Positions 1,427 through 42,699 of a DNA stretch of 43,269 bases are shown piece by piece. Every line of letters begins with the position of its first letter. Position 1 is the stretch's first letter. Source of the stretch: Nitrospira japonica (GTDB taxonomy: Bacteria > Nitrospirota > Thermodesulfovibrionia > Thermodesulfovibrionales > SM23-35); contig DYFC01000051.1 in NCBI GenBank assembly GCA_020725385.1, positions 1-43,269 of the forward strand, in the 5' to 3' direction. The translations under genes were made by a program, and so were the position numbers. Below the pieces are notes generated by a model, which saw only the letters and a program-made list of their open reading frames with translations, made no database searches and had not been told where the DNA came from.

Positions 1427-4400
1427 TCATTTACTTTTCTTTCTATGTATATCTTTTGCCTGTTCCATAAAAGCTTCGATTTGTATCTCTGTAGTTACTG
1501 ATTCGGTACCATCATATGGAATACTTATAAACGGTATTCCGTAATCCCTGCTTACTCCGCGTAAAAGAGCAGTAACAATTGTGCCTGGCATACAGCCAAA
1601 AGGCATGGCATTTATTATACCCGAAGCACCTTTTTCTATCAGGTCAATGCTTTTACCTATGCTAAGTATAGCTTCACCTTCAAAAGAACTGTCAAGATAA
1701 GGTTTGGCCTTTTTAAGTATGTCTTTTGTTTCAGGTTCGCTAATTGTCCTTAAAAAGTCCCTAAAGTATTTTGAGAATTCATGCTCTATTTTTTGCTGAA
1801 AATATTTTTTCAGCAAAAAATTAATAATAACAGACTTTTGTCTTTTTAACAATGCTTTTCTTAAGCTTATGTAATTTACATAATATATCCATTCTTCAAC
1901 CGGAGCAAGCCAGACAATGCCGCCGAGTGATTCAATTTTTCTTACAAGGTCTTCATTCGAGAAACGGTGTGACCTAACGAATATTTCTCCGATTATTCCT
2001 ATTAGCGGTTTTTGTAAGTCTTTCTTCGGCACATGCATAAAATCGGTTTTTATCTCCATAAGTATGGTTCTCATATCACCGTTGTTTTGTCTGAGAGAAT
2101 TATAGAGTCTTTCAAGATGCTTATTGTATAAATTGTCAGAAGTTCCTAACTCAGCTTCAAAAGGTCTTGTCTCATGTAAACATTTTTTTAATAATTCAAT
2201 AGCTATAATTCCTTCCCATGCATATTTAGAAAAATCTTTTCCAACAATTCCAAGGTCAGAGTAAAATGTAGTATCCTGATTCGGAGCATATATCGGAACA
2301 TTTTTATATCCTAGATTGTCAAGAACAAGCCTGTGGAAAATATTATACTGCCCGAATCTGCATGGACCGGTACCTGAAGGCATGAAAAAAGCACTATTTT
2401 CAGGATGAAAATCCGGGGATAATACTTTTTTAACCATATCACCTGTTGTTACAGCGCAGGGATAGCATTCCTTACCAGATACAAATTTTTTACCGATGTC
2501 GATTGTCTGTCTGTCTGATTCAGGTAGAACCTCGGCATTAACTCCGCATCGTTCAAAAGCTGCAGCAAGTGCAAATGCATGGTCTGACATTCGCGGTATA
2601 TATATCTTCCACGAAGGCTTCCTATCAATAATATTTACTGGTGGAAAACTATCTTTAATGCGAGTTTTAGAATGTGGCATCAAATCTCTATTGGCTATAC
2701 TATCAAGAAAAGCTTCACATCTTGTTATTGCGCCGGCGTCAGCGCTGTGTTCATCTATTTCAATGTGTAAAAAAGGTTTATCACCCATTTCTTCTTTAAA
2801 ATATTTCAATATGAAAGAATCCGGACCACATAAAAAGTTACCTATGAATATTGGATAAAGATTCTTTGTTTCTTTTATAAATCTTGCAGCTTTAAGGATT
2901 CTCTGTCCAGAACGCCAGTACATATTAGGCCATTTGTCATGAATTTGATATTTTTCAAGTGGTAGGAAGTCGAAAGGAATTGAAAGCACATCCAGATTTG
3001 CAAGCTTTTTGTGAAGTTGTAAGTTTACACCGCTGTCGAATGAATTATAAGCTCTGCCTACTATCACAATTGTAGGATTTTCTATATTTGAAAGTATCTC
3101 TTTACCTTTTTCCATTATTGAGTGAGTGAATTCCTTTTGTGCAATCTCAGCTTTTTTCAAAGCTCTTATGATTTTGAGCTTGTTTACTCCGAATATTTTA
3201 AAAGACTTATAAATCTGACTTATTAAATGTTTTTTGCCAAGCCGTAAATTTATAATAGGCGATATAACTTTAATGTTCTCGAATGCTATGTTTGACATAT
3301 AAGGTATTGCCTGTGAATAAGGGCAACCAACTCCTTTATCCATAGGTTCTTCAGGTGAATTCAGGTTGACAAAACTCGGAATTAAAATAGCATCAACTTT
3401 CTGGTCAATAAGATACTGGATATGACCATGAGCAACCTTAACAGGGAAACAAGATTCGGCAAGTACTTTTTCGAGTCCGAGATTAACTATCTGACGATTT
3501 GTTTTGGGAGATACAACAACTTCAAACCCGAGTTCCCATAATAAAGTGCTCCAGAATGGCAGAAAATCATGGAAAAAGAAAATATATGGAATACCTATTT
3601 TTTTAGGAGATTTCCATTTGCCTTTAAGTAATTTTGTTATTTTATTTTTATTAGCGTTTAATTCTAAAGCATTCTGTCTTTTCAGGTGTTCTTTCAAGAG
3701 CATTTCTTCCCTGAATGAGAAAAGGTCAACCGGGGTTGGTTTATCCGTTTTTCTCACATCGTATTTTTCACATCTACCTCCATAAAATAGAAAACCCTGT
3801 TCCCCGGATATTTTAACCCTGTTTATTTCACAAACATTCGGGCAACCTTTACATTGGAATGAACTAATTTCATAAGGCTTTTTTGATAAATCAAACCCTT
3901 TAAAAGTTGAATATTTAAATGAATTTTCTTTCATATGTTTTTTTGCAATCAAAGCCATCCCGATAGCGCCTGTGACGTCATGGTGGGGAGGAATCGTAAT
4001 TTTTTTACCAAGATATTTTTCGAATGCTGCAGCAACTGATTTATTGAATGCTACCCCGCCTTGAAAGAAAATCTTATTACCTATTTTCTTTCCGGCAACA
4101 ACACGATTTATATAGTTCTGTACAATAGAATATGCAAGCCCTGCGAGAAGGTCATTTTTGTCGGCACCTTTTTGAAGATTTGCTATTAATGAATTTTCCA
4201 TAAAAACCGTGCATCTTTCGCCTAGTCTGCATGGATGTTTTGCAGATAACGCCCTATCCTGAAATTCATTTTTGATAGAAATCGAAAGTTTTTCTGCTTG
4301 CTCTTCAAGAAAAGAACCGGTGCCTGCAGCGCAGGCTTTGTTCATCTCAAAATCCACAATTATACCATTCTGAAGGGATATATATTTTGAGTCCTGTCCT

Positions 4401-5689
4401 CCTATTTCAAAAATTGTATCGACACTTCTATCAATATAAATGGCAGCAGTTGCCTGTGCTGTGATCTCATTTTTGACTATATCGGCACCTACAAAATCCG
4501 CAATCATATATCTACCGGAACCGGTTGTTCCAACACCACAAATATTAAAACTTCCTGCTACTTCATGTTCAATTTCCATGAGTCCCTGTCTTACTGCCTC
4601 GATAGGCCTACCGGCGGTCATCAGGTAACGTTTTGCAATAAGTTCCCCCTGCTCGTTAATAACGGCAAGATTTGTACTTATTGAACCTACATCTATCCCC
4701 ATATACGCTTTTTTTCTTTGTTCGGCCGGGCAGCGATTTATAATTGAAACAATGTCAGAATATGGCGATTCTGAATAAAATCTTATGTTCCCGAAATTGA
4801 GAGTCTCACCGGGATTTTTTAAAGGCGGGTGACTTCCGGAAAGAGGTTTATAAGAATTTAGATATTTTTCGAGCAGTGAAAGGTCGAAATAATTTACTTT
4901 TCTGTCCTTAATATCTTTCATAACAGCGCCGTATGCACCCATTAAAGCAAAGTCTTCAGGAACAATCAGTTCATCAAGGTCAAATATTTCTTTGAACGCA
5001 CGAATCATGCCTTTATTTGCAGCAACTCCTCCCTGAAAAGACACAGGAAGTAGCAATTTTCTTCCTCTTAAAATCGAGCCTTTGAAATTTCTTGCTACAG
5101 CAAAGCAAAGTCCTGCTACGATGTCTTCTACAGGGGTTGCTATTTGTTGCAAGTGTATCATATCTGATTTAGCAAATACGCTGCATCTTCCTGCAATTCT
5201 GGATGGTTTTTCAGATTTAAGCGCAAGTTCGCTGAATTCCTCTATTGTTAATTTAAGTCTTTCAGCCTGCTGGTCAAGAAAAGAACCTGTTCCAGCAGCG
5301 CATACCGAGTTCATAGAAAAGTCTGTTACAGTTTTAGTAAGTGGATCAATTAATATAAGTTTTGAATCTTCTCCTCCCATTTCAATAATAGTTCTTATTG
5401 AAGGGCAAACAAGGCTGGTAGCATTTGCTTGTGCAACAATTTCATTTACAGGTTCTATTTTTAAAATTGAAGCAAGCAATCTGCCCGCAGAACCTGTTAT
5501 GGATAGTGAGAAATTCTTTTCTGTATTTCCAGTACCTAATGATTCGTTAATTTCTCTTAGTAGTTTAAGAGCAACAGGCAAAGGGTGTCCTTTGTGCCTC
5601 TCATAATAACTTTTAATTTTTTTCCCCTGTTCATCAACGACAACATATTTTGCGCTGACCGAACCTATATCAAAACCGATAAATAGCAT
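1427..5689 (-). CDS. Four-domain CoA-substrate-specific enzyme activase/reductase (2x BadF/BadG/BcrA/BcrD ATPase + DUF2229 + 2-hydroxyacyl-CoA dehydratase-like); PlsA/Ger family candidate
   Basis: 1420 aa; two ASKHA repeats (GFDIGSVSAK..EMGGEDSK..CAAGTGSFLDQQA..RCSVF and GIDVGSISTN..EIGGQDSK..CAAGTGSFLEEQA..RCTVF), CKGCPNVC..GGRC linker, then SCFPVK, CGPDSF, ECYPC, GPCRFGQY, PFGCMPG. Confidence 0.85.
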   Translation of the reverse strand: MLFIGFDIGSVSAKYVVVDEQGKKIKSYYERHKGHPLPVALKLLREINESLGTGNTEKNFSLSITGSAGRLLASILKIEPVNEIVAQANATSLVCPSIRTIIEMGGEDSKLILIDPLTKTVTDFSMNSVCAAGTGSFLDQQAERLKLTIEEFSELALKSEKPSRIAGRCSVFAKSDMIHLQQIATPVEDIVAGLCFAVARNFKGSILRGRKLLLPVSFQGGVAANKGMIRAFKEIFDLDELIVPEDFALMGAYGAVMKDIKDRKVNYFDLSLLEKYLNSYKPLSGSHPPLKNPGETLNFGNIRFYSESPYSDIVSIINRCPAEQRKKAYMGIDVGSISTNLAVINEQGELIAKRYLMTAGRPIEAVRQGLMEIEHEVAGSFNICGVGTTGSGRYMIADFVGADIVKNEITAQATAAIYIDRSVDTIFEIGGQDSKYISLQNGIIVDFEMNKACAAGTGSFLEEQAEKLSISIKNEFQDRALSAKHPCRLGERCTVFMENSLIANLQKGADKNDLLAGLAYSIVQNYINRVVAGKKIGNKIFFQGGVAFNKSVAAAFEKYLGKKITIPPHHDVTGAIGMALIAKKHMKENSFKYSTFKGFDLSKKPYEISSFQCKGCPNVCEINRVKISGEQGFLFYGGRCEKYDVRKTDKPTPVDLFSFREEMLLKEHLKRQNALELNANKNKITKLLKGKWKSPKKIGIPYIFFFHDFLPFWSTLLWELGFEVVVSPKTNRQIVNLGLEKVLAESCFPVKVAHGHIQYLIDQKVDAILIPSFVNLNSPEEPMDKGVGCPYSQAIPYMSNIAFENIKVISPIINLRLGKKHLISQIYKSFKIFGVNKLKIIRALKKAEIAQKEFTHSIMEKGKEILSNIENPTIVIVGRAYNSFDSGVNLQLHKKLANLDVLSIPFDFLPLEKYQIHDKWPNMYWRSGQRILKAARFIKETKNLYPIFIGNFLCGPDSFILKYFKEEMGDKPFLHIEIDEHSADAGAITRCEAFLDSIANRDLMPHSKTRIKDSFPPVNIIDRKPSWKIYIPRMSDHAFALAAAFERCGVNAEVLPESDRQTIDIGKKFVSGKECYPCAVTTGDMVKKVLSPDFHPENSAFFMPSGTGPCRFGQYNIFHRLVLDNLGYKNVPIYAPNQDTTFYSDLGIVGKDFSKYAWEGIIAIELLKKCLHETRPFEAELGTSDNLYNKHLERLYNSLRQNNGDMRTILMEIKTDFMHVPKKDLQKPLIGIIGEIFVRSHRFSNEDLVRKIESLGGIVWLAPVEEWIYYVNYISLRKALLKRQKSVIINFLLKKYFQQKIEHEFSKYFRDFLRTISEPETKDILKKAKPYLDSSFEGEAILSIGKSIDLIEKGASGIINAMPFGCMPGTIVTALLRGVSRDYGIPFISIPYDGTESVTTEIQIEAFMEQAKDIHRKKSK

Positions 5690-31645: not shown

Positions 31646-31675
31646 TTGCATTTAGAAAAATATTTTTGTTATACT
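31646..31675 (+). promoter_or_regulatory. Sigma70-type promoter for the acetate cluster
   Basis: TTGCAT (31646-51), 18-nt spacer, extended -10 TG-T-TATACT (31667-75). Confidence 0.55.
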
Positions 31676-31687
31676 TACATTCACCCA

Positions 31688-31732
31688 AGCCTCTGGTGTC
31701 GGCAGAATTTCCGATACAGAGGCTATTTTATA
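31688..31732 (+). promoter_or_regulatory. Long leader hairpin followed by a U-rich run (attenuator-like or 5' stabiliser)
   Basis: AGCCTCT-G-GTGTCGG / CCGATAC-AGAGGCT: 14-bp stem with one bulge and one G-U pair, 8-nt loop, then ATTTTATA. Confidence 0.55.
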
Positions 31733-31836: not shown

Positions 31837-33735
31837 ATGTTAACGGAAGAAGTAATAGAGTTTTTACATAAAATTCCGCCATTTCAATTTCTTGATAATG
31901 CAACTCTCAAACAACTCGTTAGCGGTGTTACTATGGAATTCTTTCCAAAAGGTACTGCTATACAATATCAGGGAGGACCTGCTCCCGAGTATATTTATGT
32001 AATAAAAAAAGGTGAGGTTAAAGTCTCCATTAAGAATGAATCCGAAGAGGTATTTGTTGATTATAGAGGAGAAGGAGACCTTATAGGCTATATGCTAATA
32101 TTCGGGGGGAATAGGGCAAGAGCTACTGTTATAGCTGTAAATGATACTATATGTTATCTTATCAAAAGAGAACCCATACAAAATCTTCTATATACGAATC
32201 CTGCTGTAAGAGAATTTTTCCACACTTCTTTTTTAAGTAAATACTTAGACAAGACATTCAAAGAAATCCAGAACAGGAATCTTGTTTACAGCGGAGGAGA
32301 TAAAATTCTTTTTACAATGCCTGTTGGTGAGCTGGCATCAAAGGATGTAATTAAAGCATCAGAAAATATTACTATTCAGGAAGCTGCCGAGATAATGTCT
32401 AATTACAGCATCAGTTCCCTTATCCTTATTGATGCAGACGGAAATCCATCCGGAATTATTACTGATAGGGATCTTAGAGATAAGGTTGTTTCAAAAGGTA
32501 GGGATTGCAAAGAACCTGTAAAAAATATTATGAGTGTTCCACATGTGAGAGCCGATGTGAAGGAGTATTGTTTCGAGGCTATTCTTAAAATGGTTAAGCA
32601 TAATGTTCACCATCTTCTCATTATGAAGGACGGCAAACTTAAAGGCATTTTAACAAATCATGACTTAATGCTTATACAGGGCACTTCACCGCTTTCAATT
32701 GTAAAAGACATAGAAGGGCAGACGACAATAGATGCGCTTGTTCCTGTATCAAAAAGAATAAATAATATCATTGGTCTGTTGTTAAATGAAGGAGCAAAAG
32801 CAAGCAGTATTACAAGAATTATAACTGAAATTAATGACAGGCTTGTAAGAAAAATCCTTGAAATAGCAGAGGAGCGTTTCGGAGAACCTCCTATTCCATA
32901 TTGCTGGATTGTCTTTGGCAGTGAAGGAAGAAAAGAGCAAACATTTAAAACAGACCAGGATAATGCTCTAATTTACGCTGACCCGGCATCTGAAGAAGAA
33001 GAGTCACTTGCACGGGAATATTTCAGAAGCTTTTCTCTTTTTGTGAGAGAAGGCTTGCTTAAGTGCGGTTTTCCACCCTGTCCCGCGGATTTTATGGCGA
33101 CAAACCCTATGTGGAGGCAGCCTTTGCATGTCTGGAAGAAATATTTTACGAACTGGATTTCAACCCCCACATCCGAAGCCATATTGAACTCTGTCACATT
33201 TTTCGATTTCAGAGCAGTATATGGCGAAACAAAGCTTCTTGAATGGTTAAAAGACTTCGTTATGAATATGGTAAAAGACAATAAAGTATTTCTTGGATAT
33301 ATAGCGAATATGGCTATAAAGAATATGCCACCAATAGGATTTCTCAAGACTTTTGTTGTAGAAAAGAGCGGGGAGCATAAAGATAAGCTTAACCTAAAAG
33401 TCAAGGGTCTTGCTCCTCTGGTTGATATAGTCAGACTTTTTGCACTTGAAAAAGGCATTCACGAGACATCAACTATAGAGAGAATCTTAACCTTGAAGGA
33501 TAAGCATACTATTATAAAAGAATATGCAGATGAACTACTTCACGCTTTTGAATTTATCTTGCTTCTTAGAATACAGAACCAGTTCGAACAGTTGAAAAAA
33601 GGTGAGGATATCAATAATTTTATAAATCCAAATGCTTTGAGTAATCTCGAAAAAAGAATTGCAAAGGAAACTTTTCATCTTATATCAAAAGTTCAGGACT
33701 TAATTATCGAACGTTATAAAGCTATGATCTGGTAG
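31837..33735 (+). CDS. Cyclic-nucleotide-binding + 2xCBS + DUF294 nucleotidyltransferase (GlnD/GlnE-like fold) signalling protein
   Basis: 632 aa; IPPFQFL..YVIKKGEV (cNMP), GIITDRDLR..HHL (CBS pair), FGSEGRKEQTFKTDQDNAL (GS..DxD), MATNPMW, FFDFR, LNLK..GLAPLVDIVR. Confidence 0.92.
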   Translation: MLTEEVIEFLHKIPPFQFLDNATLKQLVSGVTMEFFPKGTAIQYQGGPAPEYIYVIKKGEVKVSIKNESEEVFVDYRGEGDLIGYMLIFGGNRARATVIAVNDTICYLIKREPIQNLLYTNPAVREFFHTSFLSKYLDKTFKEIQNRNLVYSGGDKILFTMPVGELASKDVIKASENITIQEAAEIMSNYSISSLILIDADGNPSGIITDRDLRDKVVSKGRDCKEPVKNIMSVPHVRADVKEYCFEAILKMVKHNVHHLLIMKDGKLKGILTNHDLMLIQGTSPLSIVKDIEGQTTIDALVPVSKRINNIIGLLLNEGAKASSITRIITEINDRLVRKILEIAEERFGEPPIPYCWIVFGSEGRKEQTFKTDQDNALIYADPASEEEESLAREYFRSFSLFVREGLLKCGFPPCPADFMATNPMWRQPLHVWKKYFTNWISTPTSEAILNSVTFFDFRAVYGETKLLEWLKDFVMNMVKDNKVFLGYIANMAIKNMPPIGFLKTFVVEKSGEHKDKLNLKVKGLAPLVDIVRLFALEKGIHETSTIERILTLKDKHTIIKEYADELLHAFEFILLLRIQNQFEQLKKGEDINNFINPNALSNLEKRIAKETFHLISKVQDLIIERYKAMIW

Positions 33736-33740
33736 AGAGT

Positions 33741-34445
33741 ATGTATAGTTTTTTCAAACTTAAAAAGCAGGAATTTGTATCCCCGGATTTAGATAAATCT
33801 ATTTCCGAGGCGAATTATACTGTAATAGACACAGAACTTACCGGACTGAACGAACGTAAAGACTCAATAATTTCAATTGGCGCTGTTAAGATGGTAGGTT
33901 CAAAAATTGATTTAAGCAGAGATTTCCATAGATTTACAAAACCCGGGACAAAGTTTAAATCCGAAAGTGTAGTGGTACATGGAATTACTCCTTCCGATGT
34001 TTCCGAAGAACCTGCAATAGATTCTATTTTATCCGAATTCTCAGATTTTTGCGGTGATGATACTCTTATAGGTCATTGTGTTTCAATTGATATGGCGTTT
34101 ATTAACAGGGAAATGAAAAGAGTTTTGGGAAATCCAATGTCTAATCCTGTTATTGATACATTTTTTATATACGAATGGATTAGAAACCAGAGTCCTTCAA
34201 AGCCATGTTTTTCATACGCTTCAAAAGATTCAGGGCTTTATGAAATAGCAAAATGTTTCGAAATTCCGGTTCGCGGGGCCCACGACGCATTAACAGATGC
34301 ATTCATAACCGCTCAAATTTTTCAAAGGTTTATACCTGTTCTTATAAATCTTGGGGTAAAGAATCTCGGGATGCTTCTTAAGATAGGACATCCTGAAGAA
34401 GGAGGTGATAAAAGTAGCAAATCGGGTTTAATAAGTAACTTCTAA
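33741..34445 (+). CDS. Stand-alone DEDDh 3'-5' exonuclease (DnaQ/PolC-like)
   Basis: ExoI VIDTELTG, ExoII GHCVSID, ExoIII HDALTDA all intact; starts 5 bp after the DUF294 gene. Confidence 0.9.
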   Translation: MYSFFKLKKQEFVSPDLDKSISEANYTVIDTELTGLNERKDSIISIGAVKMVGSKIDLSRDFHRFTKPGTKFKSESVVVHGITPSDVSEEPAIDSILSEFSDFCGDDTLIGHCVSIDMAFINREMKRVLGNPMSNPVIDTFFIYEWIRNQSPSKPCFSYASKDSGLYEIAKCFEIPVRGAHDALTDAFITAQIFQRFIPVLINLGVKNLGMLLKIGHPEEGGDKSSKSGLISNF

Positions 34446-34475: not shown

Positions 34476-34784
34476 ATGAGTAAATTGAAAAGTACACAGG
34501 AAATCCTTCAGGATGAGGATTTTAAATCATTATCAAGTCAGAAAAATGCAATATCAATTATTCTGACAATCCTTGAATTAGTATTATATTTCGGGTTTAT
34601 TGCCCTTATTGCCTTCAACAAACCTTTTCTTTCACAAAAACTCTCCGGCGCAATAACAATAGGAATTCCCATAGCAGTTGGTACGATTATACTTTCATGG
34701 ATATTCACCGGCATATATATCCGCTGGGCTAATAGTAAATATGATGTGCTTGTTAAAAAAGTTAAAGAAAAGATAGGAGGGTAA
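34476..34784 (+). CDS. DUF485 (YjcH-like) small membrane partner of ActP
   Basis: 102 aa, two TM; [33 protein letters not shown]. Confidence 0.92.
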
Positions 34785-34786
34785 AA

Positions 34787-36514
34787 ATGCCACAGGCACC
34801 ACAAACTATTATAGGGCAATTTAATCCAGTAGCTGTAATGTTTTTTGTTTTATTTGTAATATCAACACTTGCAATTACTTACTGGGCTGCAAAGAGAACC
34901 CGTACCACAAAAGATTTCTATGCTGCTGGAAGAAGTGTTACAGGTTTCCAGAATGGATTAGCGCTTGCAGGTGATTACATGAGTGCAGCTTCATTTCTTG
35001 GAATAGCAGGACTTGTCTCGACAAAAGGTTATGATGGGTTGATCTACTCTGTAGGTTGGCTTGTTGGCTGGCCAATTATTATGTTTCTGATTTCCGAACC
35101 ATTGAGAAATCTTGGCAAATATACTTTTGCCGATGTTGTGGCATACCGTTTGAGTCAGAGACCTATAAGAGCAGCAGCGGCAGCGGGTTCACTGGTTACA
35201 GTCCTTTTCTATCTAATAGCTCAAATGGTTGGTGCAGGTACTTTAATTAAATTAATGTTCGGTCTGCCTTATGAAATTGCTATAATTGTTGTTGGTATCC
35301 TTATGATATCGTATGTTCTTTTCGGTGGAATGATTGCTACAACATGGGTTCAGATAATAAAAGCTGTCCTTTTACTCGGTGGAGCAACGCTGCTTGTCCT
35401 ACTTACAATGGCACAATTTGGATTTAGCTACGGAGACCTTTTTGCGCAGGCTGAGGCAAAATATACTGCAAAATTTCTTGAACCGGGTGGTCTTGTGACA
35501 AATCCTGTTGATGCATTTTCACTCGGACTGGCTCTAATGTTTGGTACAGCAGGTCTTCCCCACATTTTAATGAGATTCTATACAGTTCCGGATGCTCGTG
35601 AAGCAAGAAAATCTGTTTTCTATGCAACAGGATTTATCGGATATTTTTATATACTTACAGTTACTATTGGTTTTGGCGCAGCTGTCCTTGTAGGTCAGGA
35701 CCTTATTACAAGTATAGACAAAGGCGGTAATATGGCCGGACCATTACTTGCCGAAACACTCGGTGGCAATTTGTTTCTTGGATTTCTCGCAGCAGTTGCT
35801 TTTGCAACAATTCTTGCTGTTGTCTCTGGACTTACACTTGCAGGTGCATCCGCATTCTCTCATGATCTTTTCGTAGGCGTTATAAGAAGGGGTGTTGCTG
35901 CAGAGAAAGAAGAAGTAAAGGTCGCAAAAATTGCAACAGTCGGACTTGGTGCAACTGCAATACTCCTCGGCATTCTTTTTAAAGGCCAGAATGTAGCCTT
36001 TCTTGTCGGACTGACATTTGCTATAGCAGCAAGTGCGAATTTCCCCGCGCTTTTAATGTCTATTACATGGAAGAAATTTACAACTAAAGGTGCTGTAGCA
36101 AGTATCTACACGGGTCTTTTCACAGCTACTATACTTATTATTTTGAGTCCAACTGTATGGGTTGATATTGTTCATAAGACAGAAAAAGCTGCTGTTGAAA
36201 AAGAGATAAAGTCAATTGAGACAGCTTCTAAAGAAAAAATAAATGCTCTTGAACAACAAAAAGCGACCAGTAAAGATATTGCTGCTATAGATTCTTTAAT
36301 TTCTGCTGAAAAACAACAGGCAGACTTGCAGATTAAAGAAGCAAAAGCAAAAATGCCAAAACCTATTTTCCCTTTAAAGAATCCAGGTATTTATTCAATG
36401 GGAGCAGCTTTCTTAATCGGCATATTGTTCTCTTTATTCGGGCGTGAAAAAGAGGCTGAAGCAAAATATGAAGAAGAAAAATTAAGAACGTATATAGGAA
36501 TAGGAGCGGAGTAA
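34787..36514 (+). CDS. actP: Cation/acetate symporter ActP (SSS family)
   Basis: [70 protein letters not shown]; adjacent to DUF485 and acs. Confidence 0.92.
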
Positions 36515-36565: not shown

Positions 36566-38536
36566 ATGTCGAAGGAAAGTATTGATGTATTAATGGCTGA
36601 GAAAAGAACTTTTCCACCTTCTAAAGAATTCAGCGAAAAAGCGCATATAAAAAGTTTTGCTGAATATGAAAAACTTTATAAATATTCAATCGAAGACCCG
36701 GATGGATTCTGGGCAGAAATGGCAGAGAAAAATCTCACATGGTTTAAAAAATGGGACAAAGTTTCTGAATGGGATTTTGACAAACCTTATATAAAATGGT
36801 TTATAGGCGGCAAATTAAACGCCTGTTATAACTGTCTTGATAGGTTTATAAATACTCCGACAAGAAACAAAGCAGCCATAATCTGGGAAGCTGATGATGG
36901 TACATATAAAACTTATACTTATCAACAGCTTTATAGAGAAGTTAACAGGTTTGCCAATGTCTTGAAAAAACACGGTGTAAAAAGAGGTGACAGGGTTACT
37001 ATTTATCTTCCGATGATCCCGGAGCTTCCAATCTCTATGCTTGCATGCGCACGTATTGGTGCCACACACAGTGTTGTATTTGGAGGGTTCAGTGCAAATG
37101 CCTTAAAAGACAGAATCCAGGATTGCAAATCAAGCATTCTCATTACAGCTGATAAAGGTGTAAGAGGCGGTAGAACAGTTCCTTTAAAAGCAAATGCAGA
37201 TCAGGCACTTCAGGAATGCCCGACAATAGAAAAAGTCATTGTAGTAAAAAGAACCGGTCCCGCAGATATGGAGCCACAGAGAGATTTCTGGTGGCATGAT
37301 GAGATGGAAGACCCTGATATAAAGGATTATTGTGAGCCCGAACAAATGGATGCCGAAGATCCATTGTTTATTCTTTACACTTCTGGTTCTACAGGGAAGC
37401 CAAAAGGAGTTTTACATACAACAGGCGGATATATGCTTTACACAAACCTAACTTTCAGATGGATATTTGATTATCATGATGAAGATATACATTTTTGCAC
37501 CGCTGACATCGGATGGGTTACAGGACACAGCTATATACTTTATGGGCCATTAAGCAATGGAGCGACAAGTCTGATGTTTGAAGGAATCCCAACCTATCCT
37601 GACCCGAGTAGATTCTGGAAGATTGTTGATAAATTTGGTGTAAATATTTTCTACACTGCACCTACCGCTATCAGAGCTTTAATGAGAGAAGGCCCTGATT
37701 GGGTTAATAAACAAAATCTTTCATCACTCAGGGTTCTTGGCACAGTTGGAGAACCAATAAACCCTGAAGCATGGATGTGGTATCATACACATGTCGGAAA
37801 ATCAAAACTTCCTATAGTTGACACATGGTGGCAGACAGAAACAGGTGGAATTCTCATCACACCTCTACCTGGTGCAATGTCAACCAAGCCAGGCTCGGCA
37901 AGCAGACCATTTCCCGGTGTAGTCCCGAAAGTTTTAAAAGAAGATGGTTCTCCTGCCGGAGCTAATGAAGGAGGTTATCTTGTTATAGAAAAACCATGGC
38001 CCGGCATATTACGCGGAACATATGGCGACCCTGAAAATAAACGCATAAAAGAAGTCTATTTTAGTAGATTTCCGGGTAAATATTTCACAGGTGATGGAGC
38101 AAGGGTTGATGAAGACGGTGATTACTGGCTGATGGGAAGAATAGATGATGTTATCAATGTTTCAGGTCACAGAATAGGAACTGCTGAGATTGAATCAGCT
38201 CTGGTAAGCCACGAGGCTGTTGCTGAAGCTGCAACAGTTGGTTATCCACATGAAATTAAGGGTGAAGGTATTTATGTATATGTAACACTTAAAGAAGGCT
38301 TTGAACCAACCCCTGAATTAAAGAAAATACTTATTGGACATGTAAGACAGGTGATCGGTCCTATTGCTACACCGGATAAAATACAGTTTGCGCCCGGACT
38401 GCCAAAAACGCGTAGCGGAAAGATCATGAGAAGAATCCTGAGGAAAATAGCAAGAGGAGATACAGAAGATTTAGGAGATACCTCAACTCTTGCTGACCCT
38501 TCGGTTGTCGGGGAAATCCTGAAAGGCAAGCAATAA
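36566..38536 (+). CDS. acs: AMP-forming acetyl-CoA synthetase
   Basis: [68 protein letters not shown]. Confidence 0.97.
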
Positions 38537-38623: not shown

Positions 38624-41320
38624 GTGTCGGTTAAAAACCTTAATTTCTTTTTTAATCCGCGCAGGATAGCAGTTATTGGAGCAAGTGAAGACCCTGCTTC
38701 AATGGGATTCGTTGTTTTCAAAAATCTTCTTGGTAAAGGGTTTAAAGGCTCTGTTTATCCTGTTAATCCCAAGTTCGAATCTGTTCAGGGAGTAGAAGCA
38801 TATCCAAAAATAACAGATATTCAAAAAGAAATTGATCTTGCAATAATTGCTATTTGTCCTGAAGATCTAAATGTAATGTTGCCGGTTATACTCGAAGAAT
38901 GCGGAATAAAAGGAGTTAAAGGTGTTATTTTAATGTGTTTCGATTTTAAGACACGTATCGAGAATGCTTCGACACTATCTGAAAAAATAAGCCAGATTTC
39001 AACAAAGTATGATATAAGAGTGCTCGGACCTGATTCACTTGGATTCATAAAACCCGGATTGAATCTCAATGCAAGCCTTTTCCCGCATATTCCTGCAAAA
39101 GGCAACATTGCTCTGATAGCACAAAGCGCTACTTTATCATATGCATTGCTCGATTGGGCTGTTAGTAAAAATGTGGGATTCAGTTATTTTATATCTGTTG
39201 GAACTAAAATAGATATTAGGTTTGCAGACCTTATCGATTTTCTCGGGGTTGACCCTGACACAAGAGCTATTGTCCTTTATGTTGAATCAATTAAAAATGG
39301 TAGAAAATTTATGACTGCTGTAAGAAGCTTTGCTTCAAGTAAACCTATTATGGTAATTAAATCAGGTAAATACGAAGCTTCAGCACATGTATCCTTAACT
39401 CATTCAGGTTTTATGGCAGGGGAAGACAAAGTATATGATGCAGCATTTAAGAGGGCAGGGGCTATAAGACTTGATGAGACTCTCGACCTTTTTTATCTTT
39501 CGGAATCTTTATCAAAACTTCGCAGACCAAAAGGGAATCGTCTCGCAATAATAAGTAATTCCGGCGCTCCTACAGTAATTGCAATTGATACTTTAATAAG
39601 ACTTGATGGTGAACTTGCATCACTAAGCCCGGATACTGTAGAAACACTTCAGGGTAAATTTAAATTCGCAAAGTTCATCTCAAACCCTGTTGACCTACTT
39701 ATTGAGGCAACTCCTGAAGATTATGATATAGCCCTTAGAAGTTGTTTAAAGGATAAAGAAGTTGACGGAGTTCTGGTTATACATACACCAGCTTATGCTA
39801 CAAATACAAAAGATATTGCAAAAGCGGTTGTCTTGGCTGCTAAATCTTATCCATATAAACCTGTATTCACAACATGGATGGGTGAGGAACAGGTTCTTGA
39901 AGCAAGAGAATTTCTTACAAATAATGGTATTCCGACATATGTATCAACAGAACAGGCTATTCGTAGTTTTATTTACATGTATCGATATGACTACAACTTA
40001 AGAATGTTACTTGAAACCCCTGAAGTTATATTAAAAGATTTTGAGCCTGATGAGTACAAAGCTGAAGAAGTCATAAGAAAAGCTGCCGAGGATAAAAGAC
40101 TTATTTTGAACTTCCACGAAGTAAATGAGATTTTCAAACATTACGGTATTCCTGTCATAGAAACATTGGCAGCCTCAAGTGAAGAAGATGCTGTTCATCT
40201 TGCAGAGACAATCGGGTATCCAGTTGTTATGAAAATCGATTCTCAAAAGTTATTTCATAAACTTGAGCAGGGCGGGGTTATACTTAATTTGAGGGATCAA
40301 ATATCTGTCAGAAAAGCGTTCAGACAGCTTGATCATCTTGCGATTTTGCTAAAAGATCCTCATGCAAGAGTAATAATCCAGCCTATGGTACTGAAACGCG
40401 GGTATGAACTGGTTCTTGGTTCAAAAAAAGATCCAACATTCGGTTCTGTTATTATTTTCGGAACAGGAGGGGAATTAATTGAAGCCCTTGAAGATTATTC
40501 TGTTGGATTACCCCCATTGAATCAATCCCTTGCAAGAAGAATGATGGCCGAGACAAAAATTTTCAAATACCTGCAGAAAAATAAAGCATACGAAAAAACT
40601 CTGCGTTATCTTGAAGAAATTCTTGTAAGATTTTCTCATCTCATTATTCATTTTCCACATATAAAAGAAATTGACATAAATCCATTTTTTGTTACCGAGC
40701 AGGATGGTTTCGTTCTTGATGCAAGCATTCTTCTTGAAGCAGATGTTCTTGACGGGTTTGTTCCTGTTAAAGGAGAATTCTGTCCGCCCCATCTTTCAAT
40801 CTGTCCCTACCCGGATCAGTATATTGATATTTTCAAATTAAGAGAAGGCCCTGCTGTAATTATAAGACCTATCAGACCTGAAGATGAGCCTTTGTTTGAC
40901 GAACTTTTAAGAAACTCTTCTGAAAATACCCTGACAATGAGATTCTTCAGAAAAATATCCGATATATCACACGAGGAATTAACCCGTTATTGTCATGTTG
41001 ATTATGACAGGGAGATGTCTTTTGTTGCAGTTATTAGAGAAGGAGATTCGGAAAAAATGATCGGTGAAGTTAGAATGAGCAGGCTTCCGGATCTTGAAAA
41101 TGCTGAAATGGCGATAGTTGTTGGAGATCAATGGCAGGGTCAGGGTGTTGGAAAAGCTCTGAGTCTCCATTGCATAAAAATCGCAAAAGAACTCGGCATA
41201 AAAAAGATGTGGATGGATATTCTGAAAATTAACTCAAGAATGCTTTATAGGGCAGAAAAAATGGGATTCAAGAAAGTGTCTTCGGATGATGATTCTATAA
41301 AGGTAATGCTTGAGTTATGA
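38624..41320 (+). CDS. Protein lysine acetyltransferase Pat/Pka type (NDP-forming acyl-CoA ligase-like domains + C-terminal GNAT)
   Basis: 898 aa; IAVIGAS..YPVNP (CoA-binding), QSA, SNSG, NPVDL, ATP-grasp GYPVVMKI..EIDINP, then IRPIRPED..RFF..VDYDREM..WQGQGVG (GNAT motif A); GTG start. Confidence 0.9.
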   Translation: MSVKNLNFFFNPRRIAVIGASEDPASMGFVVFKNLLGKGFKGSVYPVNPKFESVQGVEAYPKITDIQKEIDLAIIAICPEDLNVMLPVILEECGIKGVKGVILMCFDFKTRIENASTLSEKISQISTKYDIRVLGPDSLGFIKPGLNLNASLFPHIPAKGNIALIAQSATLSYALLDWAVSKNVGFSYFISVGTKIDIRFADLIDFLGVDPDTRAIVLYVESIKNGRKFMTAVRSFASSKPIMVIKSGKYEASAHVSLTHSGFMAGEDKVYDAAFKRAGAIRLDETLDLFYLSESLSKLRRPKGNRLAIISNSGAPTVIAIDTLIRLDGELASLSPDTVETLQGKFKFAKFISNPVDLLIEATPEDYDIALRSCLKDKEVDGVLVIHTPAYATNTKDIAKAVVLAAKSYPYKPVFTTWMGEEQVLEAREFLTNNGIPTYVSTEQAIRSFIYMYRYDYNLRMLLETPEVILKDFEPDEYKAEEVIRKAAEDKRLILNFHEVNEIFKHYGIPVIETLAASSEEDAVHLAETIGYPVVMKIDSQKLFHKLEQGGVILNLRDQISVRKAFRQLDHLAILLKDPHARVIIQPMVLKRGYELVLGSKKDPTFGSVIIFGTGGELIEALEDYSVGLPPLNQSLARRMMAETKIFKYLQKNKAYEKTLRYLEEILVRFSHLIIHFPHIKEIDINPFFVTEQDGFVLDASILLEADVLDGFVPVKGEFCPPHLSICPYPDQYIDIFKLREGPAVIIRPIRPEDEPLFDELLRNSSENTLTMRFFRKISDISHEELTRYCHVDYDREMSFVAVIREGDSEKMIGEVRMSRLPDLENAEMAIVVGDQWQGQGVGKALSLHCIKIAKELGIKKMWMDILKINSRMLYRAEKMGFKKVSSDDDSIKVMLEL

Positions 41321-41363
41321 AAACATTGCTTTTTTTAAAAAGTAAAGGTAAACTTTTTATCAA

Positions 41364-41382
41364 ACCTCTCCATTTAGGGGAG
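41364..41382 (+). promoter_or_regulatory. Short hairpin in the porin 5' region
   Basis: CCTCTCC-ATTTA-GGGGAGG upstream of the AGGAGG RBS. Confidence 0.3.
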
Positions 41383-41408
41383 GAATCTTTCAAACCAAGG
41401 AGGGAGTC

Positions 41409-42665
41409 ATGAAAGGTATTTTCAAATGGTTCTTTGTGGCAACCCTGATAGTTCTTTTTACAGGCAATGTCTATGCCGAACCAACTGTAAAAGACTTACA
41501 GGGACAACTGGAAAAACTAATGAAACAGGTTGAAGATCAGAAAAAACAGATTGAAGCATTACAGGGGAAAATCAATGAGATGCAGTCAAAACAGGTGCAA
41601 CAGCCTGCTCCTGCTGCCCAGCCTGCTGAGGTAAAAGTAAACTCAAAATACAAAATCAATATTTACGGTAAATTAAAATTCGATGCAATTTATGATACCA
41701 ATAATATGGGAAGAGACGAATTTATCACTTATATCCCTAAAACAGCAGATGGCAAAGACCGCACTACTTTTAACGTTCGTGATACAAGACTTGGAATTGC
41801 GATTGATGGCCCATCACTTTATGGCTGGACTACAAAAGGACGTTTCGAAACCGATTTCTACGGCAATGCAGGGGACAATTCAAGCAATGGTGCTTTAAGA
41901 ATCCGTCTTGCATATGTTGATTTCGCAAAAGGAGATACTTCAATCAGAGTAGGTCAGGACTGGACACCTATTGCAAATCTTAATCCTACAACCCTCGACT
42001 TCGCGATTGCAGGATATAATGGTAATCTCTGGAACAGAACCCCGCAGATAACAGTTCAACAGAAACTCGGTGGAGGCTTTGAAGGTCTTCTCTCGCTTTA
42101 TCGTTATCGCTGGAGCGATGAGGAAGGTACAAATACCCAGATACATCTTCCATGGGTAGCAGCAAAAATTGGTTATAGCGGACTATTACTCGATCTCGAG
42201 AAAAAGGCATGGGTTTCACTCGGTGGTGCTGTCAGACACGGAGAGTCAAATGACAATAACATAACACCTTATCTTCTTGCACTTGAGATGGCAATCCCGT
42301 ACAATATGTTTGAACTTCGCGGTGAAGCTTACATGGGACAAGGACTTGGCAGTGAATACTTCCATAAAGGTGGTGCAATCAATGCAAGTGGCAATGCAAT
42401 TTTAACAAACGGTGGATGGGCACAGCTAAATGTAAAACCCCTTAAAGATCTTCAGGTAAATCTCGGGTATGGAATTGATGATCCAAAAGATGGCGATGTT
42501 GGCAGTGCATTTTACAGACAGAGCCAGTACGCATACGGTAACCTTATTTATGAAATCTTCAAAGATATTAGTGCCGGTATAGAAGCAACTTATGTTGATA
42601 CAGAATGGGATACCAAGAGCAATCACGGCTGGAGATATACAACTTCTTTAATCTATAACTGGTAA
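41409..42665 (+). CDS. DcaP-like outer-membrane porin with periplasmic N-terminal coiled coil
   Basis: Signal peptide, Gln/Lys coiled coil, IYGKLKFDAIYD, TRLG, FETDFYG, RIRLAYV, VGQDW, RTPQI, C-terminal aromatic YNW. Confidence 0.8.
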   Translation: MKGIFKWFFVATLIVLFTGNVYAEPTVKDLQGQLEKLMKQVEDQKKQIEALQGKINEMQSKQVQQPAPAAQPAEVKVNSKYKINIYGKLKFDAIYDTNNMGRDEFITYIPKTADGKDRTTFNVRDTRLGIAIDGPSLYGWTTKGRFETDFYGNAGDNSSNGALRIRLAYVDFAKGDTSIRVGQDWTPIANLNPTTLDFAIAGYNGNLWNRTPQITVQQKLGGGFEGLLSLYRYRWSDEEGTNTQIHLPWVAAKIGYSGLLLDLEKKAWVSLGGAVRHGESNDNNITPYLLALEMAIPYNMFELRGEAYMGQGLGSEYFHKGGAINASGNAILTNGGWAQLNVKPLKDLQVNLGYGIDDPKDGDVGSAFYRQSQYAYGNLIYEIFKDISAGIEATYVDTEWDTKSNHGWRYTTSLIYNW

Positions 42666-42674
42666 TTTTATTAA

Positions 42675-42699
42675 AAAGGGCGGGATTCCCCCGCCCTTT
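42675..42699. terminator. Bidirectional intrinsic terminator between porin and GGQ gene
   Basis: AAAGGGCGGG-ATTCC-CCCGCCCTTT with A-run before and T-run after. Confidence 0.8.

Follow-up and report, generated by a model that had tools for sequence, protein, structure and literature searches.

A DUF294 nucleotidyltransferase and a DEDDh nuclease at the head of a Nitrospirota acetate operon: a candidate writer/eraser pair for a nucleotide mark

The family of DUF294 proteins is large and spans many phyla, and its constant companion is a protein of nuclease fold. As far as the available parts of the Pseudomonas reports extend, two described pairs, PP_0354/PP_0353 of Pseudomonas putida and PA3233/PA3232 of Pseudomonas aeruginosa, share with the pair considered here both the architecture and the operon with an RNase_T-type exonuclease, and their expression is linked to the metabolism of acetate, propionate, and pyruvate (PMC9765439, PMC9927547, 10.64898/2026.09.07.749794). 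The subject of the present analysis is a pair of this kind encoded in a 43,269-nucleotide stretch of DNA (contig DYFC01000051.1 of assembly GCA_020725385.1, Nitrospira japonica; hereafter the window), the host being not a pseudomonad but a member of an anaerobic lineage of the Nitrospirota (Thermodesulfovibrionales-like). Open reading frame (ORF) and Pfam analysis of the window indicates that a sensor nucleotidyltransferase (31837..33735, + strand) and a DEDDh exonuclease-fold protein (33741..34445, + strand) are the first two genes of a seven-gene, same-strand acetate operon. The best explanation of this arrangement, advanced tentatively, is that a sensor-gated writer/eraser pair for a nucleotide mark heads the operon.

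The module has already been described by genetic means in Pseudomonas. Specifically, PP_0354, composed of a cyclic nucleoside monophosphate (cNMP)-binding domain, two CBS domains, and a nucleotidyltransferase, is encoded in one operon with the RNase_T-type PP_0353 in P. putida KT2440 (PMC9927547, 10.64898/2026.09.07.749794), and the two are direct targets of MxtR/ErdR (10.64898/2026.09.07.749794). In the accessible portion of the first of these reports, growth on pyruvate is impaired by deletion of pp_0353, the nuclease gene, or of actP-I, while deletion of pp_0354 has no such effect; a growth test on DNA was negative, and the authors suggest that the nuclease degrades mRNA (PMC9927547). Excerpts of other work record that the P. 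aeruginosa PA3232-PA3235 cluster is up ~16-fold on propionate (PMC9765439), and that an "RNase T domain protein" encoded near a DUF4212-sodium:solute symporter (SSS) pair shows cofitness with the transporter in two species, Shewanella amazonensis and P. stutzeri. In the latter case Price et al. guess that the gene is needed for symporter expression, although their label, COG2905, leaves it slightly ambiguous which gene is meant (10.1101/072470). A 2026 preprint, in its available part, proposes protein modification for PP_0354, "similar to" PII uridylylation (10.64898/2026.09.07.749794); the idea of protein modification was therefore not first raised by the earlier note on this DNA, which had proposed from the sequence that the transferase adds a nucleotide to ActP, DUF485, Acs, or a small molecule and that the nuclease removes it. 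The module itself is not new, corresponding as it does to PP_0354/PP_0353 and PA3233/PA3232, and the window adds no new architecture; rather, it offers a clean case of a known, biochemically uncharacterised module.

In the logic of GlnE and GlnD, a metabolite-sensing regulator both writes and removes a nucleoside monophosphate (NMP) on a metabolic protein, and the logic here would be similar if the writer/eraser reading holds. GlnE has the same fold of pol-beta core and helical acceptor-binding domain as the window transferase, and likewise the G-S ... D-x-D signature. The sensors differ, being cNMP-binding and CBS domains in the window transferase, unlike those of GlnE/GlnD, and so does the eraser, for which a separate DEDDh protein is proposed here whereas GlnE uses a second nucleotidyltransferase domain and GlnD an HD domain. 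Writer and eraser are separate proteins of unrelated folds in the DrrA/SidD system of Legionella, which acts on Rab1 and provides a precedent for such a division, the fold of SidD being phosphatase-type and not DEDDh. The AMPylation domain of DrrA (SidM) is the top Foldseek match of the window transferase and shares the best VIA-align score; DrrA, however, is an effector that is secreted and targets a GTPase of the host, while nothing in the window transferase suggests secretion or a host target. In MntA-HepT (MNT-HEPN) systems, a pol-beta nucleotidyltransferase nucleotidylylates the nuclease encoded next door, and HEPN-like helical domains, including that of an AMPylated HEPN toxin, are found among the fold matches of the window transferase (Z 7-9). 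The partner there is a HEPN RNase rather than a DEDDh enzyme, and the window transferase, unlike MntA, is large, is equipped with sensor domains, has a helical domain fused in the same chain, and belongs to no defence system called by PADLOC. An anti-phage defence reading was rejected on the same search, which returned only matches at the level of shared domains (the cNMP-binding domain of Pycsar/TIR effectors and a generic CRISPR-associated DEDDh model).

The window pair differs from its described relatives in sequence, the P. aeruginosa homologue being only ~24% identical to the window transferase, as well as in position: in the window the pair stands first, before DUF485-actP-acs-pat-porin, whereas it follows actP in P. 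aeruginosa and occupies a separate operon in P. putida. The two ORFs lie exactly where the earlier note had placed them (31837-33735 and 33741-34445, both +) and are separated, as it claimed, by 5 bases (33736-33740); its description of co-orientation and tight spacing with DUF485, actP, and acs was likewise borne out, with successive gaps of 30, 2, and 51 bases. The source assembly comprises 2.46 Mb in 71 contigs, is 96.6% complete, and holds a single DUF294 gene, and the locus closest by transferase, at 97% identity, comes from a metagenome-assembled genome labelled "Nitrospirae bacterium."

The transferase (632 amino acids) has the sensor-fused architecture ascribed to it from the sequence, with four Pfam-defined parts: a cNMP-binding domain (residues 35-118, 31939..32190, +; PF00027, E 9e-16, 58.1 bits), a CBS pair in two stretches (residues 163-278, 32323..32670, +; PF00571, E 6e-21, 75 bits), a DUF294 pol-beta-type nucleotidyltransferase core (residues 307-446, 32755..33174, +; PF03445, E 2.6e-51), and a DUF294_C helical substrate-binding domain (residues 484-625, 33286..33711, +; PF10335, E 8.7e-41). 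The last two score well above their gathering cut-offs (173.6 bits against 21 and 139.5 bits against 22.5, respectively). The catalytic motif, said to be intact, reads G361-S-E-G-R365 ... D373-Q-D375 in the translation (codons 32917-32931 and 32953-32961, +). The signature of the pol-beta superfamily consists of G-[GS], 9-13 residues, D-x-[DE], and a third acidic residue, and in the window transferase these are G361-S362, D373-x-D375, and an invariant D457, which is presumably the third catalytic carboxylate. When 44 diverse members of the family are aligned, no variation is seen at G361, R365, and D457, and conservation reaches at least 90% at S362, D373, Q374, D375, and N376, while the CBS pair residues G206, T209, D212, G270, and D276 fall into one or the other of these classes. 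Among the close homologues listed, all 120 carry DUF294 together with DUF294_C and most have the full four-domain set, the shorter entries being those without the N-terminal domains. The family as a whole numbers 4545 cluster representatives at E <= 1e-3.

The fold of the catalytic half connects the transferase to known protein-modifying enzymes. A sequence search of the PDB matched its cNMP-binding domain to the corresponding domains of PKG and CRP and returned no match covering the nucleotidyltransferase half. The full-length protein was modelled with a predicted local distance difference test score (pLDDT) of 88.2; because Foldseek matches of this model were dominated by the cNMP-binding and CBS domains, the catalytic half (residues 290-632) was also folded separately (pLDDT 96.9, predicted template modelling score 0.92). 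Against the PDB, Foldseek then returned only four matches at E <= 1e-3 (E 1.6e-6 to 7.5e-6), each to a protein AMPylase or de-AMPylase: DrrA (6yx5_B; top match, E 1.6e-6, template modelling (TM) score 0.66), two chains (A and B) of the E. coli GlnE adenylylation domain (3k7d), and the N-terminal deadenylylation domain of GlnE (1v4a). Consistent with this result, VIA-align gave a Z of 25.5 to each of 3k7d_B, 6yx5_B, and 1v4a_A over ~300 residues (root-mean-square deviation 2.9-3.7, identity 12-13%), an alignment in which DUF294_C takes part jointly with the core; DrrA fragments follow at Z ~12, then HEPN domains and aminoglycoside nucleotidyltransferases at Z <= 8.9. The earlier note's likeness of DUF294 to GlnD and GlnE accordingly stands at the level of a fold shared with GlnE and DrrA and fails at the level of sequence membership, no GlnE or GlnD model of Pfam or NCBIfam matching the transferase at E <= 1e-3. 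These models suggest that the transferase is built on the scaffold of known protein adenylyl- and uridylyl-transferases.

Elsewhere, the DUF294 output half is found with other sensors, including three PAS plus CBS, two PAS plus CBS, and sCache_2 plus PAS, and this combination of one half with varied sensors marks it as a signalling output domain. As for the input, the window's own genome encodes one class III adenylate/guanylate cyclase domain (G000:C29:99791-100318, -; within a 666-amino-acid frame), which makes a cyclic-nucleotide input plausible and is a possible source of the ligand of the cNMP-binding domain. An output module with so many sensors (cNMP-CBS, PAS-CBS, sCache_2-PAS) also resembles a signalling enzyme of another sort, one that joins nucleotides, or a nucleotide and a small metabolite such as a carboxylate or a CoA derivative, into a messenger that controls uptake and is degraded by the DEDDh enzyme or a metallophosphoesterase. 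Such a messenger would suit the fold class next in line after GlnE and DrrA in Foldseek, the small-molecule-modifying aminoglycoside nucleotidyltransferases (from E 8e-3, TM ~0.3), and the DEDDh enzymes and metallophosphoesterases do include degraders of small nucleotide signals, Orn and CpdA among them. Protein AMPylases, however, are matched much more closely (Z 25.5 against <= 8.9), no messenger receptor is conserved in the operon, and no messenger synthase is known to have the GlnE/DrrA fold, so that a nucleotide messenger is a distinctly improbable account of the pair.

The second gene encodes a predicted phosphodiesterase of DEDDh exonuclease fold (234 amino acids; PF00929 (RNase_T), E 4.7e-29, 102.5 bits against a cut-off of 24). 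All three Exo motifs claimed for it were found: ExoI at D30/E32 (codons 33828-33836), ExoII at D117 (34089-34091), and ExoIII at H181 ... D186 (34281-34298), all +, the five DEDDh residues being invariant in 33 of 33 members of the subfamily. The nuclease thus shares the fold, the ExoI-III motifs, and the H-x4-D spacing of DnaQ (the epsilon subunit of Pol III), the PolC exonuclease domain, and RNase T. This likeness invites the view that its linkage is incidental, a housekeeping proofreading or repair exonuclease of DnaQ type happening to lie beside a sensor protein, and several observations lean that way: PolC and DnaQ exonuclease domains are its closest sequence relatives of solved structure, the NCBIfam "dnaq" subfamily-domain model passes (118 bits against 71.5), and the gene is the sole PF00929 match in its genome. 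All of the DnaQ equivalogs, in contrast, score below their cut-offs, and far below in cases such as TIGR01406 (79.2 bits against 222.7) and NF004316 (80.5 bits against 196), and a search of five complete genomes of the same order that have no DUF294 (G031, G055, G086, G118, G134) found no PF00929 match at E <= 1e-3, so the lineage does not depend on this nuclease. Because it is the only PF00929 gene in its genome and relatives without DUF294 have none, the nuclease is not the housekeeping proofreader of this lineage, which seems to be without a DnaQ-type exonuclease altogether and presumably proofreads by another route. With the nuclease confined to 42 of the 151 genomes sampled from the phylum, the very ones that have DUF294, so that its phyletic pattern tracks DUF294 and not replication, and with the adjacency of the two genes conserved over four phyla, incidental linkage is hardly credible.

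That phyletic pattern emerges from two kinds of survey. In a set of 78 related genome loci (drawn from the best 80 of 592 relatives of a 12-sequence alignment query; nearly all from Nitrospirota and hence not independent), the nuclease gene lies directly 3' of the transferase gene in 64 of the 74 loci that have 800 or more bases available downstream, elsewhere in the locus in 5, and is lacking in 5. Among 151 Nitrospirota genomes, strong DUF294 matches (E < 1e-20) occur in 42, and strong matches to a profile of the nuclease subfamily (E <= 3e-33) occur in the same 42, with weak matches to that profile (75-81 bits) in only four further genomes. Where the transferase is present or absent, so is the nuclease. 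In a sample of 400 genomes, again Nitrospirota, 125 have DUF294 at E <= 1e-15.

Variants of the pair were seen in the course of these surveys. A protein of 439 amino acids from a single metagenome contig (P0125), one of 120 long nuclease relatives listed, joins DUF294/DUF294_C to the nuclease domain; as a natural fusion it was judged too weak, its GS...DxD motif being degenerate and the protein apparently cut at both ends, and it could reflect reading through the 5-base gap, or else a genuine fusion whose transferase is dead. Many related loci (L035, L047, L050, L055, L059, L063, L068, L092-L094, L097, L100, L104, and L106) contain, in tandem or nearby, a second DUF294 paralogue without a nuclease of its own. 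The GSEGR...DQD and FD[FM]R motifs are intact in 14 of 14 second copies checked, while those of L059, L063, and L068 are without the G-E-G...R signature of the cNMP phosphate-binding cassette.

A complex prediction of the kind proposed in the earlier note places the two proteins in direct contact. When the full-length transferase and the nuclease were modelled together, with 33-row alignments taken from the same loci in the same order, three runs gave the interface score ipSAE as 0.66, 0.65, and 0.66, and the highest-scoring of three controls reached 0.00; at least 95% of contacts are common to the runs, and the pLDDT of the partner is 77-78. The calibration mark is reached by 116 of 157 solved complexes and by 2 of 215 mismatched pairs, and is a rough one, as alignments of our own were used. 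Recall of a known structure by the model appears unlikely, because no solved complex of the kind was found by sequence. On the transferase side, the predicted interface comprises residues 1-6, 28-35, 37, 40, and 107-108, all within the cNMP-binding domain or at its border, and on the nuclease side a hairpin (residues 49-63) and a helix face (184-199). The prediction supports binding of the nuclease to the cNMP-binding domain of the transferase, by which it would differ from DnaQ, PolC, and RNase T.

Direct contact is also what would be expected if the nuclease were itself the effector, acting for example on RNA of the transporter or of central metabolism, with the DUF294 protein sensing and switching it by nucleotidylylation or sequestration, in the manner of the MNT antitoxins that AMPylate HEPN RNases. 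The fold offers some support, as DUF294_C is grouped with HEPN/KNTase_C domains in one helical clan and the AMPylated HEPN toxin is matched at Z 8.5, and the pair occurs without a transporter in 5 of 12 loci of other phyla. In the available parts of the genetic studies, moreover, only deletion of the nuclease gene gives the P. putida pyruvate phenotype, as would be expected of a nuclease that acts under restraint by the transferase, and mRNA degradation is suggested by the authors (PMC9927547); the speculation of Price et al. on symporter expression points the same way (10.1101/072470). The predicted interface, on the other hand, lies on the cNMP-binding domain and away from the transferase active site, and specific RNA processing is less well suited by two variants described below, namely membrane anchoring of the nuclease and its replacement by a metallophosphoesterase in locus L121. 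Nor, in the accessible part of the preprint, is the nuclease alone in its effect on propionate, where both deletions impair growth (10.64898/2026.09.07.749794). A nuclease effector is, on this evidence, an unlikely explanation, though the strongest of the rivals to the writer/eraser reading.

What the writer/eraser pair might act on is suggested by its neighbours. An SSS gene lies no more than 3 kb downstream in 56 of the 64 related loci with room for one (43 of ActP type with DUF485 and 13 of a distant SSS type), and acs lies no more than 6.5 kb downstream in 43 of 50 loci with room. Likewise, DUF485 occurs in 33 of the 151 genomes, 32 of them pair-bearing, and DUF4212 in 24, of which 18 are pair-bearing and the other six come from one genus; one or the other is present in 41 of 42 pair-bearing genomes compared to 7 of 109 others. 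In the Nitrospirota, then, the pair sits directly upstream of SSS carboxylate transporters of two subunits and is strongly linked to them. The co-occurrence of DUF294, DEDDh nuclease, and actP, which the earlier note proposed to measure, agrees there with its statement that the pair often sits beside SSS transporters, but does not extend to all phyla: the link to acetate genes is not universal, and 5 of 12 plasmid or chromid loci from elsewhere have no SSS gene beside the pair.

These 12 loci were examined by annotation, Pfam, and phmmer out of 63 plasmid and chromid records found by tblastn, which include Paracoccus, Vibrio, Skermanella, Pseudomonas, Hymenobacter, and Cytobacillus. An exonuclease-domain gene is clustered with the transferase in 11 of them, the Skermanella locus having only a 193-amino-acid membrane protein and no exonuclease-domain gene in its cluster, and an SSS gene is adjacent in only 6. 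The order DUF485-actP-DUF294-exonuclease is found in P. aeruginosa and Methylocella, and with acs ahead in Microvirga, while Paracoccus denitrificans has acs-DUF4212-SSS-DUF294-hypothetical-receiver-long exonuclease. Adjacency of transferase and nuclease is kept across four phyla, and 12 of 13 partner nucleases from these phyla retain the DEDDh residues, the thirteenth, a piece of an ORF from Halomonas, being incomplete; in Vibrio-type partners, E replaces the ExoII D.

The partner nucleases themselves vary in length and attachment. In the α-proteobacteria they are of 560-700 amino acids with one or two N-terminal hydrophobic segments by a crude hydropathy scan (L111 10676-12655, L116 10391-12079, and L119 12572-14686), and are accompanied by a small membrane "hypothetical" protein and, in both Paracoccus loci (L111 and L119), by a stand-alone receiver gene. 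Sensor-fused exonucleases were seen in Paracoccus and Rhizobium, and frames of ~700 amino acids in three Nitrospirota genomes; the partner exonuclease of Paracoccus pantotrophus also has a PAS domain, and its locus an SSS-domain histidine kinase. A metagenome scan for the sCache_2-PAS-DUF294 form gave five loci, of which only L121 was assessable, with L124 cut upstream. In L121 (913-7211), genes for a metallophosphoesterase, DUF4212, an SSS protein, a TPR protein, and sCache_2-PAS-DUF294 lie on one strand. In this single case, a calcineurin-like metallophosphoesterase occupies the usual place of the nuclease and no DEDDh gene is present in the operon. The swap of partner fits a general need for phosphodiester hydrolysis, albeit at n = 1, and it also fits the small phosphodiester substrate that a nucleotide messenger would provide.

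Under the writer/eraser reading, the transferase would put an NMP on a hydroxyl of a carboxylate-uptake protein as governed by cyclic nucleotide and adenylate levels, the likeliest target being the DUF485-ActP transporter (DUF4212-SSS elsewhere) and the second likeliest Acs, and the DEDDh enzyme would hydrolyse the protein-O-P bond, releasing 5'-NMP. DEDDh enzymes cleave the bond between the 3'-oxygen and the phosphate of a terminal 5'-nucleotide, and because a protein-O-P-5'-nucleoside bond has the same leaving-group geometry, de-nucleotidylylation is chemically reasonable for them. Strict co-occurrence, the predicted contact, the L121 phosphoesterase, and the hydrophobic segments all fit a membrane-proximal phosphodiesterase acting with the transferase. 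The mark would probably be inhibitory, because in the accessible P. putida data a strain without the nuclease behaves on pyruvate like one without ActP, while a strain without the transferase does not; this asymmetry fits the prediction of an inhibitory mark with a required eraser (PMC9927547). The more specific proposal, that the DEDDh fold has been recruited as a de-nucleotidylylase docked on the cNMP-binding domain within a widespread, sensor-gated, and reversible NMPylation switch that works post-translationally on two-subunit SSS carboxylate transporters or Acs, is doubtful.

Several observations weigh against a writer/eraser pair. The complex score is a measure of model confidence, and the predicted contact would fit a nuclease effector equally well; the counts of co-occurrence overstate the number of independent events, because the genomes are related; and we know of no precedent for a DEDDh enzyme as a protein de-NMPylase. 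In the literature searched, supplements and fitness data being outside its scope, no substrate, NMP adduct, or removal activity was found for the family, in agreement with the earlier note, which knew of no demonstrated substrate. As given in the available portions of the two P. putida reports, neither deletion alters growth on 20 mM acetate (or succinate) (PMC9927547), and both lower growth on propionate (10.64898/2026.09.07.749794), a defect of both mutants that a purely inhibitory mark does not predict. Furthermore, the pair has neither SSS nor acs nearby in 5 of the 12 plasmid or chromid loci, namely those of Hymenobacter, Cytobacillus, Vibrio tritonius, Vibrio sp. THAF191d, and Halomonas: the Cytobacillus pair stands alone, that of V. 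tritonius adjoins kdgR, and no SSS gene was found by phmmer within 8 kb in Vibrio sp. THAF191d or Halomonas. Because of these loci, a transporter target cannot be read from gene context everywhere, and a simple inhibitory mark on ActP explains both them and the propionate phenotype poorly. The conserved core is therefore the transferase-nuclease pair, its transporter context being frequent but not universal. Taken together, fold, conserved residues, coupling, predicted contact, the transporter link in the Nitrospirota, and the P. putida genetics lend partial support to the writer and eraser proposed in the earlier note, whose link to acetate does not carry over to all loci.

One of the transporter-less loci is of a separate character. 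On a Hymenobacter plasmid (L112 7301-9911) the order is reversed, with the nuclease before the transferase, and the pair lies behind a LacI regulator, surrounded by GH43 and cellulase genes and without acetate genes close by, a context which suggests that the module can be wired to other pathways.

Downstream of the pair, all on the + strand, the window operon continues with a DUF485 (YjcH-like) small membrane subunit with two hydrophobic segments by hydropathy (34476..34784; Pfam E 7e-28), followed by an ActP-like SSS protein (34787..36514; SSF, E 1e-108). The latter falls below the cut-offs of the NCBIfam ActP models (subfamily NF006903, 733.5 bits against 750; equivalog TIGR02711, 663 against 1099), and judging from its sequence, its substrate could be acetate, pyruvate, or propionate. 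The next gene encodes an AMP-forming acetyl-CoA synthetase, Acs (36566..38536), which passes its equivalog cut-offs (NF001208, 1036.4 bits against 657; TIGR02188, 1003.3 against 724.95) and has the C-terminal SGKIMRR stretch. After a gap of 87 bases follows a fusion of an ADP-forming acyl-CoA ligase-like region with a GNAT acetyltransferase (38624..41320; CoA_binding_2, Succ_CoA_lig, ATP-grasp_5, and GNAT by Pfam), which we call Pat-like from its domain architecture, no equivalog model lying above cut-off, and after a further 88 bases a DcaP-like outer-membrane protein, or porin (41409..42665; PF19577, E 2.8e-8, 33.6 bits against 27). The Pat-like and DcaP-like genes (38624-42665) share the acs operon, which is closed by a strong terminator-like hairpin of 10 pairs, 7 of them G-C, with a T-rich tail (42675..42699). 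A single transcript would span outer-membrane entry, inner-membrane uptake, activation, and acetylation control.

Upstream, a divergent GspC-like gene lies 330 bases from the operon. A candidate sigma-70 promoter was noted by eye at 31646..31675 (+), consisting of TTGCAT, an 18-base spacer, and TG-n-TATACT (extended -10); it was not among the calls of a consensus promoter scanner, and both hexamers are kept in the six closest loci. The leader contains a hairpin (31688..31724, +) of 13 predicted pairs with a loop varying from 21 to ~50 nucleotides, followed by a T-rich run and lying ~146-167 nucleotides before the transferase start codon. Of 61 upstream regions examined, 6 preserve it, namely those of the window and of L031-L035, with compensatory changes at 2 of the 13 pairs, and a comparison of the leader region with Rfam gave no family match, the sole hit, to U4, being at chance level (E 0.35). 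The hairpin may function in the operon as an attenuator or as a leader RNA.

A structured leader ahead of the operon, kept in the closest relatives, would also be in keeping with a role of the pair at RNA 3' ends, the transferase adding untemplated tails and the exonuclease trimming them to tune the stability of the operon transcript or of a small RNA. The pol-beta superfamily includes poly(A) polymerases and CCA-adding enzymes. The preprint, in its accessible part, counts the trimming of RNA 3' ends among the activities of DEDDh enzymes, with RNase T as an example (10.64898/2026.09.07.749794). The structural neighbours of the transferase, however, include no RNA-tailing enzyme, its catalytic half matching GlnE and DrrA together with a helical acceptor domain; the hairpin is limited to those few upstream regions; and by hydropathy the partner nucleases are membrane-anchored in some lineages. 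Tailing and trimming of RNA is accordingly very improbable.

Elsewhere in the window, a protein of 1420 amino acids (1427-5689, -) contains two BcrAD/BadFG-type activase ATPase stretches and DUF2229, as well as a weak match to the 2-hydroxyglutaryl-CoA dehydratase D-component in which no stretch passes alone. By its domains, the product looks like a large CoA-enzyme activase fusion.

What is added here to a known module is a quantified fold assignment, a strict phyletic coupling in a lineage otherwise without RNase_T-type genes, and a complex prediction, run with controls, in which the nuclease sits on the cNMP-binding domain through interface residues that can be mutated, in a compact operon that holds all of the candidate targets (DUF485, ActP, Acs, and Pat). 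If the writer/eraser reading is true, the pair would add a third layer to the control of how acetate, pyruvate, and propionate are taken up, the others being transcription and Pat/CobB acetylation, and regulation of the AMPylation type, so far a matter of nitrogen control and pathogen effectors, would extend to the everyday uptake of carbon. It would likewise give the DEDDh fold a new activity and explain the puzzling fitness phenotypes of Pseudomonas and Shewanella.

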